Shown: piece after piece, positions 1 to 16,287 of the stretch
Numbering within the stretch: position 1 is the stretch's first letter
How the letters are laid out: every line of letters begins with the position of its first letter
Source of the DNA: Candidatus Amesbacteria bacterium
GTDB taxonomy: Bacteria; Patescibacteriota; Microgenomatia; CAZETR01; Amesbacteraceae
NCBI GenBank assembly: GCA_027371535.1
Contig: DAHXMV010000001.1
Location: 172,825-236,824, forward strand
Reading direction: 5' to 3'
DNA length: 64,000 bases
The notes under the pieces: generated by a model
What the model saw: only the letters and a program-made list of their open reading frames with translations
Told to the model about the DNA's origin: nothing
Database searches by the model: none
Program-made: the position numbers and the translations under genes

Positions 1-152
1 CAGACCGGCTGACAACGGAAACAGAATTTTTCGGAATGGCAGAAAATGATAAATTGTCGGGATTAAATCTGATGTAAATCTCATAGACCACCCCGATCAG
101 ACTAAAAACAGCAATACCCAGAAGGATGAGGGATAACTTATTTAACACGGCG
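1..152 (-). CDS. partial ORF at window edge, hydrophobic protein fragment; extent and start uncertain
   Basis: Minus-strand frame is open from ~152 to beyond coordinate 1 (..VLNKLSLILLGIAVFSLIGVVYEIYIRFNPDNLSF..). The only candidate start is GTG. Fewer than 60 aa are visible. Confidence 0.2.
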
Positions 153-1102: not shown

Positions 1103-2362
1103 TTATCCGAATAAATGAACAAAAAATGCCCTGATTCTATAAAAAATATCCGGATGTTTTGGCGATATTGTAGCTGAAATTACCCCGACTGCGGGTTTGG
1201 CCATAACAGAAACCGGCTTGTACACACCCTTTGGATCAGTAACTAATATTCCCCGGGTATTAACGTCCAGATTTAAATAAGGCAGGGTGACATTTCCGGT
1301 TTTATCTATGAGGTACGACCGGCCCAGCCAGACAGCCGTCAACCCCGGAACCGGCCGGCCCAGATCGTTTTTGACCCGTAACTTTATGTCCCGGGAAGGA
1401 GAATAGAAGCTTTTTAAAACGCCGGCTGCCGGACGGGCCTGACCTGATGTATCCCATAGCTGGGTACTGCCCCCGACACCAACCCAGTAGTTCAATCCCA
1501 AAATTTCCGGGCGGTGCGAAGCCAATACCTGTAAAACCCCATTCAGCCATTCAGCCTGCTGATTTTCAGTCTGATCGCCGGTAACGTCAGGAACGGGAGA
1601 GCCAAACTCACCGACGACAATCCTGCCGCCTGACGACCGGGCTAAATTTTCGATATCCCGGGCATAATCATCAGGGGTGCTGACATAATGATCAATGGTC
1701 ACCACACCATCCAAGCCGGCAGTAGTGGCCGGATCCATAATTAATCTGGCCACGTCGGCGTTCATAGAGGCAAAATTCGAACGGACATTTTTGCGGATTG
1801 AGGCGAAGGCGGCTTTTGTCATCTGATATTCGCTGATTAAAAACTGCCTGAAACCTGCGACATCTCCGGTGTTTCTGGGATCACCGGGTCCCCCATTTTC
1901 ACATTCGGGGCAGGGGGTAAAAATATCGCCGTCAGCAAACAAGCCAGGATTATCCAAAATAAAGGCTTTGGTTTTATCCAGATGTGACTGCCTGGTCATA
2001 GGCGGATAGCCGAACCAGCCTTCCCAACCCGACCAGTTACCCCTAAACCAAACATTCAGACCATGGCTTCTGGCAGCCAAAACCCAGAGTTTCAAGTATG
2101 GCAGAAATTCGGGGTCATAAGGAGTAGCCACAGCCACATGCGTAGCTCCGGCAGAAGCAATTTCGGTGACATGCTCCTGAATAATTCTGACAAAAGCCGG
2201 ATCGTTTAAACCCTGTCCGGCGGCATCGCGGGAGTATTTCATCGTATCCACGGACTGGATTTCCCACCAGGAATTATTTCCGGCGGCCAATACTATCCGG
2301 GGGGAAGAACCAAATAATACCAGAGTCAGGATAAATGAAATAATTAACATCGGAAATTTCAT
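1103..2362 (-). CDS. secreted glycoside hydrolase, clan GH-A TIM-barrel type (GH5/GH26/GH113-like) with C-terminal beta-sandwich region
   Basis: Has a signal peptide. Contains a VVGEFG motif typical of the nucleophile strand of clan GH-A enzymes, and W/G/N-rich TIM-barrel signatures. The family is not resolved. Confidence 0.5.
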   Translation of the reverse strand: MKFPMLIISFILTLVLFGSSPRIVLAAGNNSWWEIQSVDTMKYSRDAAGQGLNDPAFVRIIQEHVTEIASAGATHVAVATPYDPEFLPYLKLWVLAARSHGLNVWFRGNWSGWEGWFGYPPMTRQSHLDKTKAFILDNPGLFADGDIFTPCPECENGGPGDPRNTGDVAGFRQFLISEYQMTKAAFASIRKNVRSNFASMNADVARLIMDPATTAGLDGVVTIDHYVSTPDDYARDIENLARSSGGRIVVGEFGSPVPDVTGDQTENQQAEWLNGVLQVLASHRPEILGLNYWVGVGGSTQLWDTSGQARPAAGVLKSFYSPSRDIKLRVKNDLGRPVPGLTAVWLGRSYLIDKTGNVTLPYLNLDVNTRGILVTDPKGVYKPVSVMAKPAVGVISATISPKHPDIFYRIRAFFVHLFG

Positions 2363-2370: not shown

Positions 2371-3288
2371 TTAAACTATAGCTTTAATCAACTTTCCGGC
2401 CGCATATTGATAAGCACCGGCCAATTCCGGCCGGCCGGTTAAAAAATAATAAAATGATCTGATCTGCATCCCAAAGATTAAAAAACCGTTAACCAGGCCG
2501 GCGGTATTCCGGTAATGGCGGCGATGAAAATGAAGCAGGCCGTCAAGATTTCGGGTCAGCAAATCCCGGGGGGATAATTTTTTGGTGGTGAAACCGCGCA
2601 GATGAACCACACGCAGGTGCCGGTTGTAGCAAATATTCAGACCGGCGGCCCGGATTCTGTGGCACCATTCCACATCTTCCATAAATAAAAACAACCCCGG
2701 GTCAAAACCACCGGTTTTCTGATAGACCTGTCTTTTTATCAGAAAAAAACTGGTAGAAAACCACTCCAGTCCGGTAACCCAGTGCCGCGGGTAGATCGGC
2801 CGGATAAGGTTTCTGGCCAACGGCAGATTTTCCAAACCCAGAGTCCATAAGACCGTCCTTGGCGGCGTTGGCAAAAAACCCCAGCTGGTCTGAGGGGAAC
2901 CGTCCGGATTTTCCAGTTTCAGACACAGGACATCACAATCCCGATTTTGACTTATGTACTTCAGGGAATTTAAAAGGGTATCTGACTTTACAAATACATC
3001 GGAGTTCAGCAGCAATATGTACGGAGTCCGGGCTCTCTTTAAGGCCAGATTATTACCCCGGGAATAACCGAGATTAGTTTTTTGAGCCAGGATTTTAACC
3101 TGAGGAAACCGGGTTCTGATTAAAGCAACCGTGCCATCAGAGGAATGATTGTCGATAACCAAAACCTGAATCCGGTTACCTAAAGCCCGGCGGCAAACCC
3201 GGACGGATTTTTCCAAATAAGAGAGATACCGGGAGGTAACTGCCCGGGTATTATAAGAAAGGATAATCACAGTTAAATCTGCCGCCAT
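2371..3288 (-). CDS. glycosyltransferase family 2
   Basis: N-terminal LTVIILSYNTRAVT...LVIDNHSSDGT is a GT2 signature. Confidence 0.7.
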   Translation of the reverse strand: MAADLTVIILSYNTRAVTSRYLSYLEKSVRVCRRALGNRIQVLVIDNHSSDGTVALIRTRFPQVKILAQKTNLGYSRGNNLALKRARTPYILLLNSDVFVKSDTLLNSLKYISQNRDCDVLCLKLENPDGSPQTSWGFLPTPPRTVLWTLGLENLPLARNLIRPIYPRHWVTGLEWFSTSFFLIKRQVYQKTGGFDPGLFLFMEDVEWCHRIRAAGLNICYNRHLRVVHLRGFTTKKLSPRDLLTRNLDGLLHFHRRHYRNTAGLVNGFLIFGMQIRSFYYFLTGRPELAGAYQYAAGKLIKAIV

Positions 3289-3290
3289 AA

Positions 3291-4916
3291 TTATTTCTGA
3301 TGAGTAAAAACGGGTTTGGTCTCTAACTGGTTTAAATATTCAGGTTTAAGTTCGTAAATGTCTGCAAAGGGATAGGATTCAACCTTGTTATAACGGGTAA
3401 AACCTTTTGTCCGGCTGACCAGTTTCCAGGTGAGATCGGAGTCGTCGTAGGTGCGCATAATAATCCATCTGGCCCAGCGGTCCGGAATATTTGTGGCAGA
3501 TTCCCAATATAAACCGGTACCCTCATGTATAAAGCGGGACATAGGCAGACCGGAAGAAAAAATTATGGCGTCATGGGAAGCCGCAGATATGAGAATAAAA
3601 CCCGGCTCGTTAGCGGCGTAAGTCTTTAACCAATTCGCCACCTGGGAGACATTTTTCTGACTGCTGCCAACCCGGGCATCATCAATGGTAACAGCGTCAC
3701 CGTTAATAAAAGCAAAAGCCAATACAAATAAAGTCAGACCTACCAAAATCAGACGGAATGATCCGGCTTTATCGATTAAAAAACCCGTAAAAACAGCAAT
3801 CGTGGGGACGAGCATCATGCCATAACGGACATTAAACCAGGTATTTCCGGACAAACCCTGAACGAAAAGAACCGAGTGGCCAAGATACAAAGCCAGAATA
3901 TTGAAAAATAAAGGCGATAAAAGGGCAATAGTGGAAAATCTGACGCCTGAAGAAATCCGGCGGTTGATCCAAAGCGTGACAGCCCCGATCAAACCTAAAA
4001 TCGCCGGAAATGTATAAGTGTTATATAAGAGGGCGTACAGATAAATTTTGGCGGATAAGTACCAATTGTTTTGCGTGAAAAGCACTCCGGCTTTGGCTAA
4101 CTGTTCCTGCTGGGTATGTGCAGAATAGGGTCCGAAAGCAAAATATAACCAGTCTTTAAAAATCAGTTGATTCCAAAACAACCAGATAAGAATTCCCAGG
4201 GCGCCAAGGGTCACAAACAGGAGGACGGAACCCTCGGCGACCTGATAACCCCTTTTTCGGAAACTATGTAAAAACACCAAACCGGTGGCAATTAACAGGA
4301 GAAACCAGCCGTCATAGCGGATGAGGGTGGAGGCCATAATAAAAAAGGCTGACTTGACAAGGTTTAGGACATTGGCATCGTCATGCCATAAAGTCAGATA
4401 GTAACAACCGGCGGTCATGGTGGCTAAAAGCAGCAGTTCGGTCATGGCAGTGGACTGTAAATAAAGCACGTTGAGATTGGCAGAGAAAATCAACACGCCC
4501 ACCAGACGCCCAAGAATTCCGACCTGCAGTTTCTCCAGATATTTGTAAATTAATATTCCGGTGGCAACGAAGGCGATCATTGACTGCAAGGCTCCGGCCA
4601 ATCCGGTATGCCACATAAAATCACTCCAAATAGTCGGTACCATCAAAAGGTGGGTCAGCGGCAGCCAAACGGAACCCAACTGGGCAATCCCGGGTTTTAA
4701 ACCTTCAACTACCCGCCGGCCGATATCCAGATGCGACCGGGCGTCGTTATAAGCCAAAGCCAGACCGTCATTTAAAAAATGCCAATAATAAAGAATGGAA
4801 ACCAGGGATAAACCCAGCATTAAAATTACCAACAGATTTTTACTCAGAAAATCCCGGAAGGTTCTTAACCTTCCGGCCGGGAAATTAAATTTGAGAGAAA
4901 AAGTTTCAGGTGTCAT
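3291..4916 (-). CDS. polytopic membrane glycosyltransferase, GT-C fold-like (PMT/ArnT/DUF2029-like)
   Basis: About 12 predicted TM helices. An early extracytoplasmic loop carries the acidic motif YNDARSHLDIGRR. The C-terminal part is soluble. Confidence 0.45.
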   Translation of the reverse strand: MTPETFSLKFNFPAGRLRTFRDFLSKNLLVILMLGLSLVSILYYWHFLNDGLALAYNDARSHLDIGRRVVEGLKPGIAQLGSVWLPLTHLLMVPTIWSDFMWHTGLAGALQSMIAFVATGILIYKYLEKLQVGILGRLVGVLIFSANLNVLYLQSTAMTELLLLATMTAGCYYLTLWHDDANVLNLVKSAFFIMASTLIRYDGWFLLLIATGLVFLHSFRKRGYQVAEGSVLLFVTLGALGILIWLFWNQLIFKDWLYFAFGPYSAHTQQEQLAKAGVLFTQNNWYLSAKIYLYALLYNTYTFPAILGLIGAVTLWINRRISSGVRFSTIALLSPLFFNILALYLGHSVLFVQGLSGNTWFNVRYGMMLVPTIAVFTGFLIDKAGSFRLILVGLTLFVLAFAFINGDAVTIDDARVGSSQKNVSQVANWLKTYAANEPGFILISAASHDAIIFSSGLPMSRFIHEGTGLYWESATNIPDRWARWIIMRTYDDSDLTWKLVSRTKGFTRYNKVESYPFADIYELKPEYLNQLETKPVFTHQK

Positions 4917-6411
4917 ATTTTAAGTAATCCAGAACATAAAAGGCGGTCAAAAACAGATACAAACCGACGACTAAGAGCAGCTGATAAATAACCGGGCTAA
5001 ACCACCCGGAAAATAAGAGATGATAAACCAGAGAGCTGGTGAAATGGTTTTGCAGCAGCTGAAGATTATACTGATAGGTGTAAGGGATGTGTGTAGACAA
5101 GGCAATTGCTTCCACTTTGGGAGGAACAGCACCGGTAGTTAGAACCCCCAAAGTATTTATATAGATGCTATAAATAAGTAAAACAAAGAAAAGACCGGCA
5201 AATAAAAGCTTTTTTTGATATTTTTTAAGCGCCGGACCGACACCTATACAAGCCGCAGCAGTGGCCGGAATCAGGTAACGGGGACCGAAAGACCAACCCC
5301 CCCATGGATCACCGAACATGGCATAAGAAATAAAATCCACCAAAATAACTGAAAACAGCAGCAGAGAAATATTTTTTAATCGGGGATGCTTTAAAACCAG
5401 CGCGAGGCCTAAAACACCGACTGCCAGTATCGGGCTGTAATAAAACCAACCCCTTTCATTACTAAAAACCAGGATATATACCCCATTAATCAGAGAACGG
5501 GAATTGTAAGCAAAACCGCCCCTTTTTTCAGAGATGGTGACTTCCTGAACCAGCTGGGGATCCAGTGATTTGGTCCGGCCATATATCTGGGCGGGAATCA
5601 GCGGTTGGCCGGTAGTCTGAAAATTGTACCAACAATAAACACCAAATAAGGGTATAAAACCTAAGAACAAGGCCAGAAGCCGAAGATTAATTTTGAATTG
5701 ATAACTGTCGTCCATCTGTATCAGAGAAAAATGTCTGAATAAAACGAATAATTCAATGGGTAATAGCATTAACAGATTCGGAATATCGATTAATAGCCCC
5801 GCACCCAAAAGCAGTCCGATAAAGATATCGTTTTTAACGGATACAGGTTTAGCGGCGAAAAATAAAGTCCCCAAAATTACGGATACGGCGTAGTGATGCT
5901 GAGTGAAAGTCTGTGAATAAGCCAACGCATCAGTGGCAAATAAAAATACCAGACCGGCAATGACCGATCCGATACGGGAAGCCCCGAGTTTCCCAGACAG
6001 GGAATATATCAAATAAACATTCAAGATGGCGAAAACAGCAGTCGTTAAGTAGGTAAACAACTGCGGAGCGCGAAGCAGATTCCCCAGCAAATACATGGGC
6101 ACACCTAAAAAGGAAACCCCGGGAGTAAAAATAGAATAATACTTCCCATTTTTACCCGCCAGATCAGGCAGGGAAAAAGCGGCTTCATCACGATCTAAAA
6201 ATATTCTGTGATCTTCTGCCAGAGCTTCTGTCAGGGCATAACGCGAAGTACTGTTGCTGGACTCAAACGGTCCGCCGACAGAAGTATTTTTATCATATTG
6301 AAAAACCAGCCGGTGATTGATTATCTGTCCCTTGACGACCAAGGCCAGAAAGACCAGGACCAGACCTATGGTAATAATGCCCGGCAATAATTTAAGCAAT
6401 TTTTTTATCAT
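4906..6411 (-). CDS. ArnT/PMT-like (GT39/GT83 family) membrane glycosyltransferase
   Basis: Multi-TM protein. The first loop carries DRDEAAFS, a DE-type motif of GT-C enzymes. Overall layout matches 4-amino-arabinose and dolichyl-P-mannose transferase families. Confidence 0.55.
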   Translation of the reverse strand: MIKKLLKLLPGIITIGLVLVFLALVVKGQIINHRLVFQYDKNTSVGGPFESSNSTSRYALTEALAEDHRIFLDRDEAAFSLPDLAGKNGKYYSIFTPGVSFLGVPMYLLGNLLRAPQLFTYLTTAVFAILNVYLIYSLSGKLGASRIGSVIAGLVFLFATDALAYSQTFTQHHYAVSVILGTLFFAAKPVSVKNDIFIGLLLGAGLLIDIPNLLMLLPIELFVLFRHFSLIQMDDSYQFKINLRLLALFLGFIPLFGVYCWYNFQTTGQPLIPAQIYGRTKSLDPQLVQEVTISEKRGGFAYNSRSLINGVYILVFSNERGWFYYSPILAVGVLGLALVLKHPRLKNISLLLFSVILVDFISYAMFGDPWGGWSFGPRYLIPATAAACIGVGPALKKYQKKLLFAGLFFVLLIYSIYINTLGVLTTGAVPPKVEAIALSTHIPYTYQYNLQLLQNHFTSSLVYHLLFSGWFSPVIYQLLLVVGLYLFLTAFYVLDYLKYDT

Positions 6412-7307
6412 TTGATTTTTTTGGTTGATTTATAGATTTTCCACATCGGGGTATAAGCAGGTGAAAAAGCGGTATAAATTAAAGATAACAAAACCAGAGC
6501 CACATAAGTAACAAAGTAGAGAGGTTGGGATAAAAAGCTGCTCCAAATAATGGAAATGGCTTTGGATATATCCAGCCTCATCGAATAAATAGTCGAGTAT
6601 GAAGTTTCTTTTTGCCTGGCTTTATGAAATTTGGAACTTTGAGCCAGAAAGTCACACAGGTTGTCAACTGATTTATAAATTATAGCTGCGGAGTCGCTTT
6701 TTACCAAAGGCAGACCGGACATGATAGCCCGGCGATAGCAGTATGAATCTTCATGTAAATCTTCCTGCCAGCGAAAATGCTTTAAAAAGTTCCGTGAAAA
6801 TAATCTGGCCCCGGTATATAGGTAAAGATTCGGAGCCGACATGGCAAATTTGAAAATATTTATTCTCAGAGAGAATCCAAAATTGATAATCCGGTTAAAC
6901 CAATTCACGGGCGGAGCCGGATAAGTCTGGCTGACTACCAGACTGAATTTACGGGATGATGGGACCGACCTGACTAAATGATGGATAAAATAGCGATCTT
7001 TCGGCAATGTATCGGCTTCGAGAATCAGCAAATAATCAGTTTTGCCGGGAAGGTGATCCAAAATTTCATTCAGTCTGGCATTTTCTCCCAGACGCCGGCG
7101 ACCGGAAATCAACGTGACTAAAGGATGATGCAAACCGGCAACTTCAGAGTCCGTATTATCATCCGAATGATCAGAGATAACCAAAACCTTAAGCAAGCGA
7201 AAATTATCCTGCTTCTGTGAAAGCAGACTTTTTAACAGCCGGCGGATATTCCCCTCTTCATTGAAGGCGGGTATTCCGATAGTGACAAACGGCAGATTAA
7301 CTGACAT
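6408..7307 (-). CDS. glycosyltransferase family 2 (polyprenyl-phosphate sugar synthase-like) with C-terminal TM segments
   Basis: FVTIGIPAFNEEGNI...VLVISDHSDDNTD is a GT2 signature. The C-terminal hydrophobic helices resemble GtrB/ArnC/DPM-synthase architecture. Confidence 0.65.
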   Translation of the reverse strand: MSVNLPFVTIGIPAFNEEGNIRRLLKSLLSQKQDNFRLLKVLVISDHSDDNTDSEVAGLHHPLVTLISGRRRLGENARLNEILDHLPGKTDYLLILEADTLPKDRYFIHHLVRSVPSSRKFSLVVSQTYPAPPVNWFNRIINFGFSLRINIFKFAMSAPNLYLYTGARLFSRNFLKHFRWQEDLHEDSYCYRRAIMSGLPLVKSDSAAIIYKSVDNLCDFLAQSSKFHKARQKETSYSTIYSMRLDISKAISIIWSSFLSQPLYFVTYVALVLLSLIYTAFSPAYTPMWKIYKSTKKIK

Positions 7308-8088
7308 AACGATTATTCCTGGACAAATAATATATTTCTTTCATTTGGGGTATATGGCCGTCTTTAAAGATGGCACGGACCTGGCTTTTATATCCTTTGA
7401 TGAGCTTGTTTTTATTTTCGGACCGTACCGGAAATTCATATTTTTTATAATCCGAAAATCTGGAATCCTTGTCGGATGATGTTAATAAGTATGGGAAGTC
7501 AGACCAGAAAATGGTTTTTGGGAAGATGAGTGAGCTGACCTTATGAACGATCACGTGATCCACATGATTACCGTTTCCCAAAGGAGAAAAGACATAATTT
7601 TTCCCCGGACTGATGATTTGGCGCAATCTCCGTCCGATTTTATCCATCAGGCTGTAATCGTTTTCAGAAATTTTGCCCCTGATCACGTGCCAGCGGTAAG
7701 TGGGGTAGATATGAATTAACTCCGGAATCAGAGGCCCAAGCCATTGGCTAACCGGATTTAATTTTTCCTTTTTTCGCCATGAACTGTCAATAAAATCCAG
7801 ATTAATCACCCGGCAGCCGATGGCCCGGAGCGTAGTTTCGTCTTCACTGATCCGGTCCCGGAATAATTTTTGCGGGTCACGGTAACCACACTGACGGAGA
7901 AACTGACGGGCAGATAAAGTGGGGGTATGGCTGTCTACTTTGGTGAACACGTTAATAATGGTCACCGGGACGTGTTTCTTACGTAATCTGTAAATCAGCG
8001 AACCTGCCGACAGGACGGCGTCATCAAGATGCGGAGAAATAAAATAACAGGGAGTTTTAGCAGTGATTAGTTTAAGCAGACGTTCCAT
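7297..8088 (-). CDS. PIG-L/LmbE family N-acetylglucosaminyl deacetylase
   Basis: ISPHLDDAVLSAGSL matches the (A/S)PHxDD zinc-binding motif of the LmbE/PIG-L family. The start is uncertain (either 8121 or 8088). Confidence 0.7.
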   Translation of the reverse strand: MERLLKLITAKTPCYFISPHLDDAVLSAGSLIYRLRKKHVPVTIINVFTKVDSHTPTLSARQFLRQCGYRDPQKLFRDRISEDETTLRAIGCRVINLDFIDSSWRKKEKLNPVSQWLGPLIPELIHIYPTYRWHVIRGKISENDYSLMDKIGRRLRQIISPGKNYVFSPLGNGNHVDHVIVHKVSSLIFPKTIFWSDFPYLLTSSDKDSRFSDYKKYEFPVRSENKNKLIKGYKSQVRAIFKDGHIPQMKEIYYLSRNNRYVS

Positions 8089-9208
8089 AATTTTTCTGTA
8101 CGGACGATAAGTAAACAGCATAACTATTTATGATCTGATTCCAGCTGAAATTTTTTGCAAATTTCCTGCCTTTTTGGGCTAAAACTTTCGACTGACGGGG
8201 GTTGTTTAATATATTTTGGATATGACGACTCAATGCGTGGACATCAAAACAGGCGGTTTTCAGACAACAATCAGCCGGCACCCATTTAAGGCCGTCGATA
8301 TCAAAAGTCACCAAAGGTTTTTGATAGGCCAAAACTTCCAAGGCAGCGAAGGAAAATGTTTCAAAACGGGATGGTACTACCACCAAATCAGCCGAAACAA
8401 ACAAAGCAAATTTTTCCCGCCCAGTTACTCTGCCAGGCAGGATTACCCTGTCAGAAAGACCCAGCCTGCCAATCATTAATTTCAGAGCACTGACTTCGGC
8501 AGCCGTACCTGAGCCGGCAATTACCAACCTACCTGAATATCCGGGCAACAGCAGTGAATACGCCCGAAGCAATAAATCCAAACCTTTCTGATTTATTTCA
8601 ATCCGACCGATAAATAAAATATAGTTACCGGAAACCGGCTTTTTAGGTAACACCGGGATATCTATACCGTTGGGAATTACTTGAATCTTGGATCCGGGGG
8701 TTTTGGAGTGTACTAACTGACGGATCTGATCACTAGTGACGTGAATATAAGAATAGGTTTTAAGGCCTAAATTTTCGGCCAGTTTAAACGGCAGATGGTA
8801 CTTGCGCTGCATATCTTCACCAGCCAACATATGGACGCTGCCGATAACCGGTTTATTGGTAAAAAGTGGCAGACAGGTAGTAGAAAACGGAGGGGTAAAA
8901 CTTTCCAACCAGATATCGAAGGGTAATCTGAAAATCAGGCTTATAAGTGACAACTGGTAGGCTAACTGACCCAGTTTAGGACCAAAATTACCGCTACCTA
9001 CATATCGATATTCAACCCCATCGATTCTTTCATTCAGACAGCCGGGATATTTACCGGCCATAACCAGCACCCGGAAACCCATTTTCTGCAAACCGGTGGC
9101 AATTTTGAGAACAGCAAAAGCCCCGCCTCCGGCATAGTACGGGTTTTTCGGGCTATCATAATTACTGATAACCAGGCGGGTTTGATGATCAGTCTGCGGG
9201 TGCATACC
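8072..9208 (-). CDS. glycosyltransferase family 4 (GT-B, group 1)
   Basis: The N-terminus contains a YYAGGG donor-binding motif. The C-terminal GT-B domain is similar to GT4 enzymes. The start is probably MHPQ. It overlaps the 3' end of the upstream giant gene by a few codons. Confidence 0.65.
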   Translation of the reverse strand, partial: GMHPQTDHQTRLVISNYDSPKNPYYAGGGAFAVLKIATGLQKMGFRVLVMAGKYPGCLNERIDGVEYRYVGSGNFGPKLGQLAYQLSLISLIFRLPFDIWLESFTPPFSTTCLPLFTNKPVIGSVHMLAGEDMQRKYHLPFKLAENLGLKTYSYIHVTSDQIRQLVHSKTPGSKIQVIPNGIDIPVLPKKPVSGNYILFIGRIEINQKGLDLLLRAYSLLLPGYSGRLVIAGSGTAAEVSALKLMIGRLGLSDRVILPGRVTGREKFALFVSADLVVVPSRFETFSFAALEVLAYQKPLVTFDIDGLKWVPADCCLKTACFDVHALSRHIQNILNNPRQSKVLAQKGRKFAKNFSWNQIINSYAVYLSSVQKNYGTSA

Positions 9209-12200
9209 AGCTTTGGGTTTGGGGCAGTTGGGTTTGAGAATTAAGACTAGATTCAATCACGGATATAAACTGGTCGGCTTTGGAATTCCAGTCGAACAAG
9301 CGCGACCAAGTCAGAGCTGCCCGGGAAAACCTAGTGAGGTTATCAGTATTTTTCACCAGATCTAGCATGACCCGGGTTAAAAATTCTATATTTTTAACCG
9401 GAACCAAAACACCCGTCCGGCCGGAGGCTACAGAGTCACGCAAACCACCCACATCTGAAGCAATCACCGGAGTGCCACAGGCATTAGCTTCAATCACGGT
9501 GATACCCCAGCCCTCAAAGGAAGAAGGCTGAAGCATGGCCCAACCCCTGCCCAGAAGTTCGCTTTTTTGTTTTTCACTGACTCTTTGGGTAAATATCACG
9601 GATTTACCAAGATGCAGTTTGGCGGCCAGGGCCCGCAGATTATCCAAATTTTCACCCCAGCCGGAAATGAAAAACCTGGCTGCAGGATAACTTTTTACCA
9701 CCACGGCAAAGGCTTTGATGGCAACATCGATATTTTTATACGGCCTGAGGCGCCCCAAATAGATGAAAGAAGGGTAGGGGGTCTTTGGACAGGGGTGAAA
9801 CATATCCGGATCAATGCCGGGATTTACTACAGAAATATCCTGAGCAGGAGCCAAACCCAGGTCAACAATATCAGTTTTGGAGGATTCGGAAACGGTGAGC
9901 ACCTGATGATGTTTATAAACCAATGGCATCACCTTCGATTCCAAAAACACAGCCAGCGAGGAAAGAGGAAATGCCAGATGTTCACGAAAAACATTCTGGT
10001 GGATATGGTGGATTAACAGAAAAACAGGCAGACGTGAATATATGGGGGTAAAAAACGGAATCCCGTTTTCACAGTCTATAATAACATCAAATTGACCCCT
10101 GAATTTAAGGAAATAATAGATGACAGCCCAGATATAGACCGTAAAGAAACCACCACGCCGGATTATCCGGACGCCATTTTTAATCTCATTCCTCCGGGAC
10201 TTACCGTCGTTCCCGCAAAAAACAGTCACCTGATAACCCTGACTGACCCAACGCTTTGACATCTCCTGGATATAAACTTCCGCACCGCCAGCCCAGACAT
10301 GTCCGGTATCCCGCCAGTTAAAAATTAACAAGCGGAGTTTTTGGGAATTGTAAATCTGATTATCAGGCAAGCCCCGGAACAAGCCTGTAAAATCCGCAAA
10401 ATTACGGATTAAATTCTTTATCTGGTCATAATACAGGTGCCCAAGGCCAACCAGAAACAGATAAAAAATGCTGTAGTAAAACATGGCATAAACAAAAGCC
10501 GTCAAATTGTTTTTGGCAGAGTATAAAAAGAGCACCTGTACGGGCGAGGTTATGACACTTAAATAACTAAAAATATACTGATGGCGGATTTGGTAGTAAT
10601 TGACAATATTACTGGCGATAGTAAAAGCCACCATAGCCAATGTAAACCACGGTAATAAACCGGAAAGAGGCAATATTTTGCTACCAAAAAGAAGGGGGGC
10701 GGTTATCTTACCGAAAACTCCGAAAACCACTGATACTGCCAGAGAAACAAGAGTAGTCACCAACAAAATCCGATAGAAAATCTGTTTGGAATTTTTTCCG
10801 GCCCCCTCTGCCCGGCTGACCAGGGGGGTAATAAACTGGGAAAAAGTCCCGCCGGCAAAATAAACCATTTTCCCGACCAGGGAAATCAGGGCATACTGAC
10901 CTGCCTGGACGGGGTTTAAAAACATTTTGGCAAAGACGATATCCAGACTCAAAAAAGACAGGGCTGAAATTCTGACCAAAAGAGAGGAAGCAAAAAATTT
11001 CCGGGGAAAATGGGTAACTGCAGCTTTATCCGGCAAGGGAGCTGAAGTTTTAAGAGTCCGAGCTGCCAGCCAGGTAAACAAAAAGGGAAACGAGGAGGCC
11101 AGGGGGATAGCTGCATAAACCAGATTGTTCCATCCTAAATGGATAAACAACATGGTCAGCAGGAATTTAATGACTGATTCCGAAACGGTAGCTACAGCCA
11201 GAATAGTAAACCGCGTATTGCCAGCTAAAAATCCGCCGTCAACTGCCGATAAAGTGCCGATAATCCATACAGGAGAAAATAATATAAAAGGAAATGCCGA
11301 ATGACTGCCGAAAACTGCCGGTAACCAGGGAGACAAAATTAACCAAAGCGCGGTTATAACCAGTGATAAACGAAAAACATTTTCCCTGATGTAGGCCCAA
11401 AATTGTTTAGGTATCAGGTTAAACCGGCCGAACAGAAAACCGCTTCTGTAGGTCACTGTCCTGGCCAAAGCACCGGCCGGAATTTCCAGCAAATTGTAAA
11501 AACTGCCCATCAGGCTGATAATCCCGAAGTCCGAAAGAGTGATTCCCGGGCTATGACTTAAAAAGGCATTGTATAAGAAATTGAAAAAATTACTGAAGAC
11601 CGAGGATGCTATCAAGGCTCCGGCTCCCAGGTTCTGGCGGGAAAAAAGCGATTTAACGGAGGTAAAATTAAAAGCCAATTCCGGGGTGAGAACGATATGT
11701 TCCGGGACAGTTTTGGGGTCCAAATTAATACCGTGGTGGGTTTTTTCCCAATAATGAGGTTTTACTACCAACTGATATACAGCCTTGACAGCGGCAAAAC
11801 TGATCATCAACCAATAAAACGGCACCAGATAAATATATTTCACCAGGTCCCAGCGGTCCCTTTTGGCGCAGCCAATCATGTAGTTATAAAAGAACATAAA
11901 GTTACCGATAACAGCCGAGAAAACAGCCATATAGAAAATTATCGGAGGATAGATAGCTTCGATTTGGGGTCCGACATACCGGTAGAGGGTAAAGTAGGCG
12001 ATAGTTGTCAACCAGAGGAAAGGATTAATAACCATAAAGGTGATACGCAAGCCGATGACCAGTTGAAAAATCAGAGCATGGATTCCGTGTTTTTTCAGAA
12101 AAGCCAAGGGGTGGCGGTTGTGGACCAAAAAAGTCTGGATGTAGCCTTTGATCCAGCGTGAACGCTGCCGGATCCAACTGGCCAGATTCCCGTTGGCTTC

Positions 12201-13814
12201 CTCGAGGGTGGTGGAATCAATCATGGCTGTCTGGAATCCGTTTTTGAATAAGCGGGCGCCCAAATCGCAATCTTCAGTGACATTGAAAGCATCCCAACCG
12301 TGGAGGGATTTCAAGACCCGGGTACGAAAATGGTTGGAGGTTCCGCCCAACGGGATAGTGGTATTAATTGATTGCAGTCCGGGCAACACCACGTCAAACC
12401 AAAGTGAATATTCAGCGGTGAACAAACGGGTAAGCAAGTTTCGGCCGGGGTTGTAAAAATTCAATTTTCCCTGCAGACAGGCCACTTTTTGTGGCGAGTT
12501 CAGAAAACCCAGATAAGCTTTTTTCAGCTGCAACGGATCCGGTTGGTCTTCGGCATCATAAACAACCACATACTCCCCCCTGACAAAGTTCAGGCCGTAA
12601 TTACAGGCTTTGGGTTTAGTTTTAGGTTGCGAATCGGGGACGATAATCGTCCTGATATATGAAGGCAATCCATAATTTTGGGCAGCGGTGATTGTGGCCT
12701 GATCATCAGCTTCCAAAAGCAGTATCACATCCAATTTATTTTTCGGCCAATCGACTCCGGTGATGGAATCTACAAAAGCCGGCAGCACACCCGCTTCCCG
12801 GTATAGAGGACACAGAATGCTATAAACAGGCAAATCCACACGGTCCAGTGAGGCCAAATCAGAGTCCGAAAAGGTTAATTCCGGCGGGAAATGCAAACTT
12901 TTCAGGACTATATACAGACTGAACAGGGTATCCAACAAATAAATTGAGGTCAGAATGGCTGTCAAAAAAATGGCAGTATTTAACGGGGTGAAATAAAAAC
13001 CTAAAAGAACTAATAACAAACAAACCAACAATCCGGCTTTCTGCCAAGGGTAGAGTGTAGGAACGGCGGAGTCTGACAGAGGCAGACGGGTATGGGTCAC
13101 AAAGCGATGTTTTTTGTGGACAATACCCGAACCGATATTATTTTCCGGGTACGGACCATTGATCGCAAAAAGTGATGGGGTATGGATTTTGGTCTTCAAG
13201 ACAGCGGTAAAATGCTGCCATGCTGAGATCTCTTCCCGATTGGCGGGGATGTCCTGGAAAACTTCAGCCACGGAATATCCAAGCTGTATGGCAGTATGCA
13301 GAAGCCAAATGTCAATGTCATTTTTACCAAGTTTTCCAAGAGGCAAATAATCTACTAAAACCCGGGGAAGAATCTTTAGGCCGGAATTGACATCATACTG
13401 AATACCCAACAAAGTCCTGGTCAGTGAATTATGAATGCGGGAGAATCTACTATTTTTGCGGCTGGCGATAATAACCTGATTCTCGGGCAGTAAATCCAGC
13501 ATCCGGGTAAAAACATCACGACTAAAAGGGGTGTTTTCGTCATAATAAGCTATAAATTCAGCCTGAGACGCGGACATTCCGTCTAACAAGGATTGGGTTT
13601 TACCATCCCGGCTGGTCTGAATAATCTTTATAGGATAATCTTTGGATAGTTTTTCCAGCGATCGTTGGTTATTTATTACTCCCCGTTCAAGTGCCAGGAT
13701 AAAAGTATACGAAATCCGGACATGATTCAGAACCTGCTGAAATTGATCTAATAGCGGGATAAGAGATCCCGATTTCCGGTTAATCCGGATAATAATATCC
13801 AGGTTATCTTTCAT
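9189..13814 (-). CDS. 1541-aa multidomain polysaccharide synthase fusion: N-terminal GT2-like domain, processive GT2 domain (DAED, TED, QRSRW motifs) with TM bundle, Wzx/MATE-like polysaccharide flippase-like TM region, C-terminal GT4 domain
   Basis: A single uninterrupted ORF. Residues ~330-560 carry PVYSILCPLYRE..YDAEDQ..TEDCDLG..QRSRWIKG, the hallmarks of cellulose/chitin/hyaluronan-synthase-like GT2. Residues ~700-1150 are about 12 TM helices. The C-terminus carries EGWGITVIEANACGTPVIASDVGG, a GT4 E-x7-E region. Confidence 0.7.
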   Translation of the reverse strand: MKDNLDIIIRINRKSGSLIPLLDQFQQVLNHVRISYTFILALERGVINNQRSLEKLSKDYPIKIIQTSRDGKTQSLLDGMSASQAEFIAYYDENTPFSRDVFTRMLDLLPENQVIIASRKNSRFSRIHNSLTRTLLGIQYDVNSGLKILPRVLVDYLPLGKLGKNDIDIWLLHTAIQLGYSVAEVFQDIPANREEISAWQHFTAVLKTKIHTPSLFAINGPYPENNIGSGIVHKKHRFVTHTRLPLSDSAVPTLYPWQKAGLLVCLLLVLLGFYFTPLNTAIFLTAILTSIYLLDTLFSLYIVLKSLHFPPELTFSDSDLASLDRVDLPVYSILCPLYREAGVLPAFVDSITGVDWPKNKLDVILLLEADDQATITAAQNYGLPSYIRTIIVPDSQPKTKPKACNYGLNFVRGEYVVVYDAEDQPDPLQLKKAYLGFLNSPQKVACLQGKLNFYNPGRNLLTRLFTAEYSLWFDVVLPGLQSINTTIPLGGTSNHFRTRVLKSLHGWDAFNVTEDCDLGARLFKNGFQTAMIDSTTLEEANGNLASWIRQRSRWIKGYIQTFLVHNRHPLAFLKKHGIHALIFQLVIGLRITFMVINPFLWLTTIAYFTLYRYVGPQIEAIYPPIIFYMAVFSAVIGNFMFFYNYMIGCAKRDRWDLVKYIYLVPFYWLMISFAAVKAVYQLVVKPHYWEKTHHGINLDPKTVPEHIVLTPELAFNFTSVKSLFSRQNLGAGALIASSVFSNFFNFLYNAFLSHSPGITLSDFGIISLMGSFYNLLEIPAGALARTVTYRSGFLFGRFNLIPKQFWAYIRENVFRLSLVITALWLILSPWLPAVFGSHSAFPFILFSPVWIIGTLSAVDGGFLAGNTRFTILAVATVSESVIKFLLTMLFIHLGWNNLVYAAIPLASSFPFLFTWLAARTLKTSAPLPDKAAVTHFPRKFFASSLLVRISALSFLSLDIVFAKMFLNPVQAGQYALISLVGKMVYFAGGTFSQFITPLVSRAEGAGKNSKQIFYRILLVTTLVSLAVSVVFGVFGKITAPLLFGSKILPLSGLLPWFTLAMVAFTIASNIVNYYQIRHQYIFSYLSVITSPVQVLFLYSAKNNLTAFVYAMFYYSIFYLFLVGLGHLYYDQIKNLIRNFADFTGLFRGLPDNQIYNSQKLRLLIFNWRDTGHVWAGGAEVYIQEMSKRWVSQGYQVTVFCGNDGKSRRNEIKNGVRIIRRGGFFTVYIWAVIYYFLKFRGQFDVIIDCENGIPFFTPIYSRLPVFLLIHHIHQNVFREHLAFPLSSLAVFLESKVMPLVYKHHQVLTVSESSKTDIVDLGLAPAQDISVVNPGIDPDMFHPCPKTPYPSFIYLGRLRPYKNIDVAIKAFAVVVKSYPAARFFISGWGENLDNLRALAAKLHLGKSVIFTQRVSEKQKSELLGRGWAMLQPSSFEGWGITVIEANACGTPVIASDVGGLRDSVASGRTGVLVPVKNIEFLTRVMLDLVKNTDNLTRFSRAALTWSRLFDWNSKADQFISVIESSLNSQTQLPQTQSWYAPAD

Positions 13815-13835
13815 AATTAGTATTAAAAAAATAAC

Positions 13836-13868
13836 CCTAGAGGGTTACTAACTATAGGATTATACCTT
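13836..13868 (-). promoter_or_regulatory. putative promoter (-10 TATAAT on minus strand at 13858-13863) plus 6-bp-arm palindrome AACCCT-AG-AGGGTT just upstream of the giant glycosyltransferase gene start
   Basis: Read directly: ggattatacc gives TATAAT on the minus strand. The palindrome sits at 13836-13849, between the -10 element and the ATG at 13814. Confidence 0.3.
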
Positions 13869-13884: not shown

Positions 13885-14265
13885 CTAGCCGAAGTTAAAT
13901 GAGAAGAATGTGAGAATTGTGGCAGACCCAAAAATTCCCATACTATCGATTAAAATATCCCTGACCCGGCCATCACGACCAGACACAAAAGTTTGGTGAA
14001 ATTCATCGGATGAAGCGTAAATCAGCCCGATGGCTATCAGCAGAATAATAATGCTTTTTTTAGTCAAATTTGTTGTCCGGTGCAGAGAAAAATATAACAG
14101 ACATCCCAGGATGAAATACTCGGTAACATGGGCACATTTTTTAATCAAGAAGTCCTGCCATGCGACCGGGGAGACATGCAAGGGGGGCCGGGAAGAAAAA
14201 CCGAAAATCACTACCATCCAAAATAGTGTGGGTAACCAATAATATACCCGGGGTAACGGTTTCAT
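13885..14265 (-). CDS. VanZ-like family membrane protein
   Basis: Four TM helices. The motif string CAHVTEYFILGCLLY ... SSDEFHQTFVSGRDGRVRDILIDSMG matches VanZ-like conservation. Confidence 0.6.
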   Translation of the reverse strand: MKPLPRVYYWLPTLFWMVVIFGFSSRPPLHVSPVAWQDFLIKKCAHVTEYFILGCLLYFSLHRTTNLTKKSIIILLIAIGLIYASSDEFHQTFVSGRDGRVRDILIDSMGIFGSATILTFFSFNFG

Positions 14266-15116
14266 GGCAAAGAAATTTTACTAGATTTTTTGAGTAAAAG
14301 GTAAGCGGAGATGATCATAACAAAACCGCCTAAGGCCATCAGAGCAATACCGGGTAACCGGGACGGGGAGGCCAGTTGATCTTCGGCTACCGAGAGATCC
14401 AACGCCGGGACGGCTGTTACCGAAACAGAAAGTATATTGGCGGCTAATACAGAGGAGGGTGTGGCTGCCGGAGCGGATAGAGGAGGATCGGCAATCGGAG
14501 AAGCAGCTGCAGACTGAACGGGGAAAAACGGGGTTAAGGTTGGTCTGAGGGTGGGTTTGGCAGTGGGCTGGGGAGTAATTCTGGGGGTAGGCGGAACAGA
14601 AGTGGATGTGGTTTTAGGAACGGGAACGGGAGTAGCGGTGGGCACAGGGGTGACTGTGGGGGGCGGACCGGAGAGGGAAATTGCGACAGGATCAGACCAT
14701 AAGGCCGGACTATTATCCGAGGTATAACGGCCGACTTTGAAAAAGTAGTCTCCCGGTCCGGAAAAATATTTGTCTGACGGGTCCGGTTTGACGTCCAGAC
14801 TGAGGCTGGCTACGGGTGAAGATTTGTCTATGGGGGCCAGATGAAAGTATCGGGTGGCAAGTGAACCGGGTGAATTTATCCATTCGCCCCCGTTATTTTT
14901 TGTGAATCCGAAATAATTTGTAGATTTAGGTGTATAAAATACCGCCCGGAGATAAGAGTCACCACAACCGGCAGGACAGGAAAGACTAATCTCAACCGGA
15001 AATTGACTATTTAAATCCGCCGAGGCCGGACATCCGGTGAAAGTCAGGGTAATAGCCGCTCGAATTGGGGAAAAAGATAATAAAAAGAAGACCGGACAAA
15101 TCTTCCACCAGCTCAT
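14262..15116 (-). CDS. secreted Pro/Thr-rich cell-surface protein with C-terminal hydrophobic anchor
   Basis: Has a signal peptide. A PT-rich linker is present (PPPTVTPVPTATPVPVPKTTSTSVPPTPRITPQPTAKPT). The C-terminus is SRLPGIALMALGGFVMIISAYLLL + KKSSK. Confidence 0.55.
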   Translation of the reverse strand: MSWWKICPVFFLLSFSPIRAAITLTFTGCPASADLNSQFPVEISLSCPAGCGDSYLRAVFYTPKSTNYFGFTKNNGGEWINSPGSLATRYFHLAPIDKSSPVASLSLDVKPDPSDKYFSGPGDYFFKVGRYTSDNSPALWSDPVAISLSGPPPTVTPVPTATPVPVPKTTSTSVPPTPRITPQPTAKPTLRPTLTPFFPVQSAAASPIADPPLSAPAATPSSVLAANILSVSVTAVPALDLSVAEDQLASPSRLPGIALMALGGFVMIISAYLLLKKSSKISLP

Positions 15117-15120
15117 GATG

Positions 15121-16287
15121 TCAGGACTTGATATAAGTGGAAACGGATATGATGCTGGAGGTGGAATAATGGTCGGAAAATTTCAGATCCGGCCCGAACC
15201 AGGGATCGTTCATAATATAATCCGGGCCGTTTTTAGACTTTATAACAATGAAATGCTCCGAACCGTTGGCGAATTTCAGACCGATAATTACCGGACGTCC
15301 CGCAGCCAGTTCGGAATCCACCAGTGAAAGATTACGGCCGTTATAGACTGTAAATTTAAATCCGGGTTGAGACGGCCACGGAATCCACATCAGATCCTGG
15401 AAAAAATAACTGGTATTGGAAGCAATATCAGCCGGGGTGACATTCATGCCATTTTTCTTTTGTAACATCGCCACACTGGTAATCAGGCATCCATACTGCC
15501 ATACCAGGCTGGGATTTTTTGATCCACAAGTGGTACCGATACAGGCACCGCCCCAGCGCTGGTCACGCTGGTTCATATACCAACCGTCGGGACTGGATTG
15601 AGGTGGCAAAAGACCCCCGCCTTCGGTAAACAAAGCCAGAGCGTTTCGCTGGGCTATGGCTTCATTCAGAAGTTTTTGGTAATTGGCTTCGTCGTTTTTG
15701 GTTTGTTTTAAGAGGAGGTCCTTTTGAGCCCGGAGGCTATCCAGATCAGCTTTCTGGAACTGCAGACGCTTTTTTGATGATTCGATCAGGTCCTTCTGCT
15801 GGGCATAATTTGTCTGAATAAGCTGAGTATCGTGAAGCATTTTCCGACTGGAGCTCTGGGTCTCCTGGGCATATTTAAAATGGTCCAACATCTGTGAAAA
15901 ATTATCAGATGAAAAAATCAGTTCAATAGGATCTATCTTCTCCTGCTTATAGGTGGCTACGATCTGCTTTTGCAAATATTCCACCCGCTGTTCCAGTTTG
16001 GTTTCCAAAACGTCTATTTTTTGGGATATAACGGAGATCAGATCCGTTGTCTGAGCGATTTTTAACTGGTTTAAAGTAATCTGATTGTCATAATAAGTAA
16101 TCTGACCTCCCAGAGTTTTGGCATTGCCCTGGGCCGTAGCAATTTTTTGATTAAGATCATCGATTAACTGCTGACACTCAGTCTGCTTGTCAGGCTGGTT
16201 GCAAACATCGGTCTGATCCGCGCGGACATAAGGCGCCAGGCAGAAATAGCACAAGATAAACAGTGAAAAACCTAATAATTTTTTCAT
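15121..16287 (-). CDS. PcsB/EnvC-like divisome peptidoglycan hydrolase: signal peptide, long coiled-coil, C-terminal papain-like cysteine peptidase (CHAP/C39-like) domain
   Basis: Heptad-rich region spans residues ~30-210. The C-terminal domain has a candidate catalytic Cys (WGGACIGTTCGS..YGCLITSVAML) and His (GSEHFIVIK). It lies immediately downstream of ftsEX. Confidence 0.55.
   Translation of the reverse strand: MKKLLGFSLFILCYFCLAPYVRADQTDVCNQPDKQTECQQLIDDLNQKIATAQGNAKTLGGQITYYDNQITLNQLKIAQTTDLISVISQKIDVLETKLEQRVEYLQKQIVATYKQEKIDPIELIFSSDNFSQMLDHFKYAQETQSSSRKMLHDTQLIQTNYAQQKDLIESSKKRLQFQKADLDSLRAQKDLLLKQTKNDEANYQKLLNEAIAQRNALALFTEGGGLLPPQSSPDGWYMNQRDQRWGGACIGTTCGSKNPSLVWQYGCLITSVAMLQKKNGMNVTPADIASNTSYFFQDLMWIPWPSQPGFKFTVYNGRNLSLVDSELAAGRPVIIGLKFANGSEHFIVIKSKNGPDYIMNDPWFGPDLKFSDHYSTSSIISVSTYIKS

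Follow-up and report, generated by a model that had tools for sequence, protein, structure and literature searches.

The window analyzed here, a stretch of 64,000 nucleotides (nt) from Candidatus Amesbacteria (assembly GCA_027371535.1, contig DAHXMV010000001.1, positions 172,825 to 236,824 of the forward strand), contains on its minus strand one giant open reading frame (ORF) for a protein of 1541 residues. This protein joins a domain derived from polyprenyl-phosphate glycosyltransferases (PPGT), a membrane-integrated glycosyltransferase module of family GT2, a flippase-like domain of the MOP superfamily with 12 transmembrane (TM) helices, and a glycosyltransferase domain of family GT4. The ORF is genuine: it specifies a multi-domain membrane enzyme that is conserved in Patescibacteria and is most similar to Microgenomates and Amesbacteria-like versions. 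Literature searches on glycosyltransferases, flippases, cellulose synthases and fusions of Patescibacteria, or of the candidate phyla radiation (CPR), returned no published description of the family. The parts of the ORF are the following (HMM, hidden Markov model; pLDDT, predicted local distance difference test).

9189..13814, minus strand: whole ORF, fused PPGT-like/GT2 synthase/MOP flippase-like/GT4 protein, 1541 residues (ORF list, translation, homologues)
13140..13814, minus strand: residues 1-225, degenerate GT-A domain from a PPGT of the DPMS/ArnC/GtrB type (Pfam, family HMM, motifs)
12891..13139, minus strand: residues 226-308, conserved juxtamembrane stretch (G230, T240-H241), then the N-terminal pair of TM helices belonging to the synthase (hydropathy, model)
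12120..12842, minus strand: residues 325-565, GT2 catalytic (GT-A) domain (Pfam PF13641/PF13632, motifs)
12546-12557, minus strand: DAED motif (coordinates verified)
12270-12278, minus strand: TED motif (coordinates verified)
12153-12167, minus strand: QRSRW motif (coordinates verified)
11730..12119, minus strand: residues 566-695, C-terminal membrane/interface helices of the synthase (AlphaFold model, positive-inside analysis)
11730-11750, minus strand: invariant W689-E-K-T-H-H-G695 (alignment of 120 homologues)
11640..11729, minus strand: residues 696-725, variable linker between synthase and MOP domain (gappy alignment, pLDDT <50 at residues 699-720)
10383..11639, minus strand: residues 726-1144, MOP-superfamily PST/Wzx-like 12-TM flippase-like domain (Pfam matches of homologues, fold)
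9255..10337, minus strand: residues 1160-1520, GT4 of the GT-B, retaining type (Pfam PF13439, 1.6e-15; PF00534, 1.6e-38)
9489-9515, minus strand: EX7E motif of the GT4 module (invariant in 120 homologues)

The ORF is uninterrupted, and its ATG is the first possible start because the stop-to-stop frame opens just 10 codons further upstream. An open frame of this length is impossible by chance at the GC content of the region (~45%). The initial annotation had described one uninterrupted ORF of 1541 residues uniting four modules that are normally separate proteins, and both parts of that description hold (ATG start, minus strand; every split or fused permutation occurs among the relatives). The motifs that it named are all present, as D420-A-E-D423, T513-E-D515, Q550-R-S-R-W554 and E1434-G-W-G...E1442. 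They are invariant in an alignment of the best 120 of 1557 relatives (search over 5.8 billion proteins), the set on which all statements about invariance rest here. Full-length homologues number more than 120; almost all of the best 120 have 1500-1600 residues and cover 98-100% of the query at 46-61% identity. Their hosts are Amesbacteria, Gottesmanbacteria, Woesebacteria, Roizmanbacteria, Curtissbacteria and other Microgenomates/Patescibacteria. In the Pfam annotation of the giant ORF, the GT2 module is recognized at residues 331-610 and the GT4 module at residues 1176-1500.

The initial annotation had also raised the worry that an assembly or frameshift artefact had fused neighboring genes or that the central region is simply the C-terminal TM bundle of the synthase itself. 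The chance of either is negligible. In a few related loci from metagenome-assembled genomes (MAGs), the gene is split into two overlapping ORFs (L013, L017, L019; loci carry L numbers and homologues P numbers), so that sequencing errors do occur in this family; these breaks are probably sequencing frameshifts or pseudogenes. However, the full-length architecture is kept in more than 100 divergent genomes from many separate studies, the identical 1541-residue protein is present on three public contigs (NCBI, ENA, Logan), conservation runs unbroken through the domain junctions, and the central region is an independent MOP domain (see below). With at least 599 related loci found when one genome per GTDB species is scanned, these comparisons exclude a frameshift or mis-assembly as the origin of the architecture.

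The HMMs of the four modules were run over all ORFs of 84 loci. In Patescibacteria, the fused forms are the full fusion, GT2-MOP-GT4, PPGT-GT2-GT4 without MOP, and GT2-GT4. Other fusions contain a truncated MOP remnant, with a complete MOP gene standing separately behind it. Split pairs take the forms [PPGT-GT2][MOP-GT4], [GT2][MOP-GT4], [GT2][MOP], [PPGT-GT2][MOP] and [PPGT-GT2][GT4], and separate MOP genes are found in L031, L038, L039, L045 and L049. Moreover, MOP-GT4 genes recovered independently adjoin PPGT-GT2 genes. Homologues also occur in cultivable Saccharibacteria (compare L023 and L038). Because of these permutations and this adjacency, the four modules appear as one functional system in which fusion is optional. 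Loci L011, L012, L014-L016, L018 and L020, among others, have a typical Patescibacteria architecture; they come from Third Party Annotation (TPA) MAGs whose titles (“uncultured Gammaproteobacteria,” “Bdellovibrionales,” “Pseudomonadales”) look unreliable.

The central region (residues 726-1144) is a separate 12-TM domain of the MOP/PST (Wzx) type, because of the Pfam matches of its homologues, its fold, and its occurrence alone or joined to GT4. Among 27 homologous regions (33-66% identical) scanned singly, PF01943 (Polysacc_synt) is matched by 14 (best 1.5e-11) and PF13440 by five (best 2.3e-13). A separate AlphaFold model of the domain (pLDDT 87.2; predicted TM-score, pTM, 0.85) shows twelve long helices, and every one of the 47 PDB matches obtained with it by Foldseek at E≤1e-3 is a MATE, MurJ or WzxE protein (TM-scores 0.66-0.79). 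A profile built from the 27 regions has no match at E≤10 among all PDB sequences. In a profile search that covered 1.84 billion representative proteins, the domain occurs stand-alone (~410-470 residues), at the N-terminus of proteins of ~720-900 residues, and in long fusions; the stand-alone and MOP-GT4 proteins rank with the best matches. By Pfam, the mid-sized proteins are MOP-GT4, MOP-GT4-GT2, MOP-GT2-GT4, MOP-GT4-GNAT, and MOP-kinase-like (APH-like). The Wzx/MATE-like region proposed at the outset is, with the PF01943 matches in 14 of 27 regions, the exclusively MOP fold matches and the stand-alone forms, distinct from the TM bundle of the synthase. Conserved residues of the domain are D958, K963, K982, K883 and R754. 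With the flippases WzxE, MurJ and TacF, it shares the 12-TM two-lobe fold and, in half of the homologous regions, the signature of the PST family. It differs from them in its covalent fusion, with a GT2 synthase on one side and a GT4 on the other, and in having no sequence-level match to the solved MOP proteins.

Residues 245-695 form, to judge from sequence and fold matches, a membrane-integrated GT2 of the BcsA/hyaluronan synthase (HAS)/NfrB kind with intact catalytic motifs (PKTKPKACNYG, DAED, PLGGTSNHF, TED and QRSRW are all invariant). The best PDB sequence match is to E. coli BcsA (1.6e-16), then come Rhodobacter BcsA and PcManGT (3.6e-6). In NCBIfam, the CelA and PgaC-type models respond far under their equivalog cutoffs (CelA, 72.9 vs. 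699 bits). A second AlphaFold model comprises residues 230-1150, that is, the GT2 half and the MOP half (pLDDT 85.3). It places two N-terminal TM helices (residues 256-275 and 277-308) before the GT-A domain, which is followed by the interface helix with QRSRW and by another three long helices (residues 578-614, 624-651 and 661-684). With Foldseek, the GT2 half aligns with BcsA, Xenopus HAS (XlHAS1), Chlorella-virus HAS (CvHAS) and PcManGT over ~450 columns including TM helices, and PcManGT has the top target-normalized score (TMt 0.70). The BcsA/HAS-like membrane GT2 announced as the second module is therefore found in both sequence and fold. The two TM helices that follow the N-terminal domain belong to the synthase module, since the segment of residues 226-308 is kept in homologues devoid of that domain.

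The positive-inside distribution, together with the necessity that GT4 be cytoplasmic after a 12-TM MOP domain, leads us to infer four true TM helices plus interface helices for the GT2 module, with the WEKTHHG motif facing the cytoplasm. The overall topology (hydropathy, model, positive-inside) is compatible with a cytoplasmic location of every catalytic domain. WEKTHHG (residues 689-695) sits at the position of the gating loop of BcsA and is a possible equivalent of it. The linker that follows (residues 696-725) is probably disordered according to the model. Pfam identifies no c-di-GMP (cyclic di-GMP) receptor module, PilZ or MshEN, in the giant ORF.

As in BcsA and class I HAS, a GT-A domain with D, DxD, TED and QxxRW is placed between TM helices, and a conserved motif comes after the last interface-like helix, at the presumed place of the gating loop of BcsA. 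In contrast to both, the module of the window has about four TM helices, neither a PilZ domain nor a BcsB-like partner. The gating loop motif is FxVTxK in BcsA, whereas the candidate here is WEKTxHG, followed on the same chain by the MOP domain and the GT4. The Pyrobaculum PcManGT (PDB 6yv7), a “minimal cellulose-synthase-like” membrane GT2, is similar in its small TM complement and matches in both sequence and fold, but it has no flippase or GT4 fusion; it is a stand-alone enzyme of archaeal N-glycan assembly, without N-terminal TM helices. NfrB of E. coli is a characterized exopolysaccharide synthase activated by c-di-GMP that pairs GT2 with an MshEN domain (PMC8669469, PMC8669472). Like the window module, it is a GT2 with DxD, TED and QxxRW that has few TM helices, and its membrane part is followed by a W[DE]KTxH motif (WDKTTH in NfrB). 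The identity between the two is nevertheless ~20-22%, and a direct comparison, which gave distant similarity only, rejects the window module as an NfrB orthologue. The MshEN domain is C-terminal in NfrB, N-terminal in the orthologues outside Patescibacteria (see below), and absent from the Patescibacteria fusion. Besides, the partner of NfrB is the outer-membrane protein NfrA, rather than a GT-C protein or a MOP domain.

The C-terminal module (residues 1160-1520) is an intact GT4, in agreement with the GT4 carrying EGWG..E of the initial annotation (Pfam and invariant motif). PDB matches are to MshA, GlgA, PimA, PimB', WbaZ and PglA-type enzymes. BshA, PglJ and a model for N-acetylglucosaminyl-phosphatidylglycerol synthase are matched as well, and all scores with the family models lie far under the cutoffs. 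With PimA, MshA, PglA/PglJ and WbaZ, the module has in common the GT-B fold family, EX7E, and PF13439 with PF00534; it differs in the lack of any equivalog-level match and in its fusion to the C-terminus of a MOP domain.

In the family, the N-terminal domain (residues 1-225) is, by its signatures, a PPGT. The consensus reads IIPVxNE...FVDDxSTDxT...GKGKAYSILEG...MIDxDLQYPPE, and the intact domain of homologue P0002 is closest in the PDB to DPMS (5mlz, 5.7e-15), then to ArnC and GtrB; the NCBIfam models that match it are AglJ (best), ArnC and PgfS. The window copy reads instead IIRINRK...ILALERGVINNQ...DGKTQSLLD...YYDENTPFSRD, so that IIPVxNE has become IIRINRK, VDDxSxD has become LALERGV, and DxDLQYPPE has become DENTPFSRD. 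It keeps eight of the 21 signature residues (family median 21 of 21) and reaches 172 bits with the family HMM, where other full-length members reach 260-354. PF00535 matches it at E=8.7e-4 with 19.7 bits, under the 23.3-bit cutoff. The whole domain is absent from 10 of the 120 homologues, and these are among the nearest relatives of the query (52-58% identity), whereas the nearest full-length relative, P0002 (61%), retains intact motifs. From the lost signature, the low HMM score, the close relatives without the domain and the intact P0002, the domain is in decay in this lineage and, in the window copy, very probably inactive. The N-terminal GT2-like domain of the initial annotation is thus present, with a weak Pfam score, but the initiating role given to it is not retained: it probably initiates nothing here. 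In relatives, its PPGT type points to a route of lipid-linked sugar donors rather than to simple priming. The likeness to DPMS, ArnC, GtrB and AglJ consists in the IIPVxNE, VDDxSxD and DxDLQxPPE signatures of the family members; the differences are the loss of these signatures in the window protein and of the whole domain in sister lineages. The decay of the domain is a clear example of module loss in progress.

The genes around the giant ORF and the other features of the window are listed below.

8072..9205, minus strand: stand-alone GT4, 377 residues from ATG at 9205, the start of the public gene call (Pfam, public gene call)
7297..8121, minus strand: PIG-L family de-N-acetylase (Pfam PF02585, 1.1e-12)
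6408..7307, minus strand: stand-alone GT2, 299 residues (Pfam)
4906..6411, minus strand: p501, polytopic membrane protein, GT-C-like, 501 residues (~10 TM helices)
3291..4916, minus strand: p541, unannotated GT-C-like (PMT_2-like) membrane protein, 541 residues (family-level Pfam, co-occurrence)
2371..3288, minus strand: stand-alone GT2, 305 residues (Pfam)
1103..2362, minus strand: p419, conserved secreted protein, 419 residues (signal-peptide-like N-terminus)
138-1019, minus strand: fn3-domain surface protein (signal peptide, Pro/Thr linker, sorting-signal-like tail)
13830-13849, minus strand: terminator-like hairpin (AGTAACCCTCTAGGGTTATT) with a T-run after it, in the gap from the VanZ stop to the start of the giant ORF
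13885-17832, minus strand: upstream genes ftsE, ftsX, PcsB-like coiled-coil protein with papain/C39-like peptidase domain, 284-residue Pro/Thr-rich membrane protein, and VanZ
26967-28442, plus strand: housekeeping ORF
33585-35147, minus strand: housekeeping ORF
52404-55220, minus strand: housekeeping ORF

The 3' end of the giant ORF overlaps the next GT4 gene, as had been noticed at the outset, by 17 nt (ATG at 9205) or by 68 nt (TTG at 9256). In Woesebacteria/Amesbacteria loci, a recurring order is observed: the giant glycosyltransferase, variable glycosyltransferases, deacetylase or sugar-nucleotide genes, p501, p541, p419, and a sortase. A deacetylase, PIG-L or CE4, recurs in related clusters.

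The p541 protein is a nearly universal partner of the GT2 module: the majority of the 84 loci, and likewise the majority of those outside Patescibacteria, have a p541 homologue beside the module (iterative search). In Chloroflexia, the homologue forms one chain with the GT2 module, joined at the C-terminus of the latter (BLASTP, 32% identity over 360 residues, E=2e-42). Among Patescibacteria, p541 proteins are 62-80% identical, above the conservation of the giant enzyme, and are annotated “hypothetical.” PF13231 (PMT_2), a GT-C family of transferases dependent on polyprenyl-phosphate sugars, is matched by seven of 16 diverse members of the p541 family (best 8.7e-7) and not by the p541 of the window itself. 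Loci L059 and L065-L067 are listed with the p541 family and its GT2 fusion; locus L002 stops within the p541 gene. The protein p501 is a distant paralogue of p541 (against the p541 family, hhalign gives a probability of 96.7% and E=3e-10). It weakly matches NCBIfam NF047440, “LA_3751/LA_3752 putative glycosyltransferase” (1.5e-15), and none of 10 p501 homologues has a Pfam match. PDB sequence searches with p541, p501 and the p541 profile gave no match. In the loci examined, p501 and the MOP-GT4 unit are found mainly in clusters of the Patescibacteria type.

The p419 protein, kept at the same place in L003, L004, L037, L047 and L058, has no Pfam or NCBIfam match; it is possibly the glycan-processing enzyme of the cluster. 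At a comparable place, L087 has a GH6 glycoside hydrolase (12373-13563). In L004, a choline-kinase/APH-like gene stands directly after the giant glycosyltransferase (14637-15533), and homologue P0154 is grouped with these signs of decoration. The GH6 gene, the APH-like kinase genes and the MOP-APH-like fusions hint at the chemistry of the backbone and at its possible decoration with phospho-substituents. The tail of the fn3 surface protein contains LAGTG, a hydrophobic stretch and then KSSRRVK. The next gene, just past the edge of the window, is a sortase gene (public contig; L001, 23667-24206), and a sortase closes the cluster in L003 and L004 too. The fn3 protein may be a target of glycosylation or anchoring. 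Among the 30 ORFs of the window scanned with Pfam, there is neither an initiating phosphoglycosyltransferase nor a member of a Wzy family.

Upstream of the giant ORF, the gene set corresponds to the “patescibacterial VanZ-2 + ABC + peptidase + LTD protein” operon of the Lipocone paper (PMC12419801). The terminator-like hairpin, with a TATAAT-like hexamer just upstream of it, may split two transcription units or act as an attenuator. The ftsEX-peptidase-VanZ genes were considered as part of the system and rejected, being adjacent in some genomes only and separated by the hairpin. The remainder of the window holds housekeeping genes, among them a GlgA-type starch/glycogen synthase, a Memo-AMMECR1 fusion, SecA, ABC exporters, an MFS transporter and an aminotransferase.

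In Chloroflexota, Actinomycetota, Bacillota, Aquificota and Brocadiia, all outside Patescibacteria, there are proteins with 45-53% identity to the GT2 module by itself. Named carriers are Nocardioides and Paraconexibacter (L062) in Actinomycetota, and Clostridium drakei SL1 (L083) and Sporolactobacillus (L073; sp. THM7-7 is a cultivable carrier) in Bacillota. These orthologues bear an N-terminal MshEN domain (PF05157, 5.9e-30 in Paraconexibacter), a high-affinity receptor of c-di-GMP (PMC5013675). In Clostridium drakei, the operon has, in this order, a p541-like gene, a PPGT fused to a GtrA/DPMS TM domain, and MshEN-GT2. The association of the GT2 module with a GT-C protein, and often with a PPGT, thus reaches past Patescibacteria, and cultivable bacteria (L083, L062, L073) carry a putative system of MshEN-GT2 and p541-like GT-C under c-di-GMP control, for which no literature was found.

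What the system does can be proposed from these patterns. The explanation that fits best, and to which we give about even credence, is that the giant protein is the fused form of a glycan-assembly system encoded elsewhere by separate genes, and that it works by two tracks. On one track, the GT2 module would use a nucleotide sugar on the cytoplasmic side to polymerize a backbone glycan, which it would thread outward, on the model of BcsA, HAS and NfrB. It would probably do so in a complex with p541, its fusion partner in Chloroflexia. On the other track, cytoplasmic transferases (the GT4 domain, the products of the stand-alone GT2 and GT4 genes, and the N-terminal PPGT domain of relatives) would build a polyprenyl-phosphate-linked sugar or short oligosaccharide. 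The fused MOP domain would flip this lipid-linked product, and p541 and p501 would transfer the flipped sugar to the emerging polymer or to another envelope acceptor outside the membrane. The logic of this second track parallels GtrB/GtrA/GtrC, GacI/GacK/GacL and AglD/AglR/AglS. GacK and AglR are predicted flippases of undecaprenyl- or dolichyl-phosphate sugars (Und-P, Dol-P), and the MOP domain is paired with a PPGT and a GT-C enzyme as in GacI/K/L and AglD/R/S. Of a three-component system of extracytoplasmic glycosylation (PPGT, flippase, GT-C), the flippase-like MOP domain and the GT-C-like p541 and p501 are present here; the PPGT is degenerate in this copy and intact in most relatives. In the window copy, the PPGT step would be absent or supplied in trans. 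By fusion, an organism whose genome is very small would have the two tracks together at a single site in the membrane.

The synthase character of the first track is favored by the MshEN domains on the orthologues, by NfrB with its like pairing (PMC8669469), and by the GH6 gene of a related cluster. The lipid-linked donors of the second track are favored by the intact N-terminal domain of relatives, which resembles DPMS, ArnC, GtrB and AglJ, and by the operon of Clostridium drakei. The initial annotation had seen a self-contained assembly line that initiates, polymerizes and exports a glycan. Its four modules are there; the conserved extracytoplasmic GT-C partners downstream, which it had not noticed, make the two-track mechanism the likelier one.

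Several observations weigh against the two-track proposal. The central region of the window protein itself has no Pfam match even at E≤10 and no NCBIfam match. The model of residues 230-1150, in which both halves are confident and the linker is disordered, gives no confident placement of the GT2 and MOP domains relative to each other (pTM 0.61). MOP-less fusions exist (L026, L028-30, L035), so that the flippase is dispensable in cis. The role of the GT4 is drawn solely from its constant pairing with the MOP domain. The GT2 module has ~4 TM helices vs. 8 in BcsA and 6 in HAS; because of these few helices and the resemblance to PcManGT, an enzyme of lipid-linked glycans and not of polymers, processive polymer export by the module is not assured. 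No other clear PPGT is found within the 64-kb window, which leaves the donor of the GT-C proteins unexplained in this copy.

Three other schemes can be built from the same modules, and the model of residues 230-1150 gives no decision among them. All modules could act in turn on one polyprenyl-phosphate-linked glycan, in a Wzx-like or archaeal Agl-like manner: the PPGT would prime, the QxxRW GT2, the GT4 and the stand-alone transferases would extend non-processively, MOP would flip, and GT-C would polymerize the glycan or move it as a block onto protein or cell wall. In this scheme, the GT2 would not be a polymer-translocating synthase. The minimal ~4-TM GT2 module and its fold match to PcManGT (TMt 0.70), an enzyme of lipid-linked N-glycans, are what such a scheme expects. 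So are AglJ as best NCBIfam match of the intact PPGT domain, the likeness of the GT4 to PglA, PglJ and WbaZ-type enzymes acting on lipid-linked glycans, and the sortase with the sortase-substrate-like fn3 protein at the end of the cluster. The fusion of MOP to varied cytoplasmic tailoring enzymes (GT4, GT2, GNAT, APH-like kinase) is also as expected for the flippase of a finished lipid-linked unit. However, the GT2 orthologues outside Patescibacteria carry MshEN receptors of c-di-GMP as exopolysaccharide synthases do (PMC8669469), the nearest sequence relatives of the GT2 are BcsA and PgaC, MOP-less fusions exist, and the window ORFs scanned include no initiating phosphoglycosyltransferase or recognizable Wzy. 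We regard this single lipid-linked line as rather unlikely, while taking it seriously.

It is improbable that the product is a glycolipid or lipoglycan anchor comparable to phosphatidylinositol mannosides (PIM), lipomannan (LM) and lipoarabinomannan (LAM) or to glycosylphosphatidylinositol (GPI). There, the GT4 would add N-acetylglucosamine (GlcNAc) to a glycerolipid, PIG-L would de-N-acetylate it, MOP would flip it, GT-C would extend it outside with a polyprenyl-phosphate sugar made by the PPGT, and GT2 would add a polymeric part. The GT4 does match PimA, PimB', MshA, BshA and the N-acetylglucosaminyl-phosphatidylglycerol synthase model, and a PIG-L deacetylase is adjacent here and recurrent in relatives. 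A GT4 with PPGT, GT-C and an unknown flippase agrees also with the logic of mycobacterial PIM/LM. Yet this likeness of the GT4 to lipid-acting enzymes is generic, with scores far under family cutoffs, the deacetylase is a secreted-type CE4 in some relatives, nothing links the MOP domain to glycerolipid substrates, and the GT2 synthase, the most conserved module, would have no clear role. More improbable still is a hybrid conduit, in which the MOP bundle would complete or gate the polymer channel of a 4-TM synthase in place of TM7-8 of BcsA, forming one export pore without alternating-access flipping, the single conduit that the initial annotation had raised. The few TM helices of the synthase module would suit such a pore, as would the junction, for MOP joins right after WEKTxHG, where BcsA has TM7-8 and the Chloroflexia proteins carry the GT-C domain. 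But the model lends such a conduit no support (confident domains, pTM 0.61 for the two halves), and the linker is variable and predicted disordered. The MOP domain exists by itself or is encoded by a gene of its own, some fusions that are otherwise intact lack it, and it retains the signature of the PST family.

Synthase-dependent and Wzx (flippase)-dependent assembly of polysaccharides are, in textbooks, alternative routes. Here, hallmark proteins of both are joined in one conserved polypeptide, in a minimal-genome lineage whose envelopes are almost unknown. None of the domains is of a new kind, and databases contain many members of the gene family under generic names; what is unusual is the presence of a synthase-type GT2 and a Wzx-type MOP domain on one chain, and the pairing, across phyla, of the GT2 synthase with an unannotated GT-C family. 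One could imagine that envelope glycans are assembled in a third, hybrid mode, although we consider it unlikely. In it, a minimal BcsA-like synthase with four TM helices would be physically linked to a MOP domain of the Wzx type and to GT-C transferases, the polymer being exported and glycosylated or lipid-anchored at one site, and the same GT2 and GT-C core under MshEN/c-di-GMP control would constitute, in Actinomycetota, Chloroflexota and Bacillota, an exopolysaccharide system not yet described. If true, the MOP bundle would complete the translocation path or pass lipid-linked units straight to the chain as it emerges. The patterns of fusion and splitting serve as a Rosetta stone that unites four classes of enzymes and two GT-C-like membrane proteins lacking annotation in one system, and they point to a cultivable version controlled by c-di-GMP in Clostridium, Sporolactobacillus and Actinomycetota. 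They offer a handle on the function of the very conserved “hypothetical” p541 family, on a flippase that can be studied on one chain with the enzymes presumed to make its substrate, and on the surface covering of CPR bacteria.

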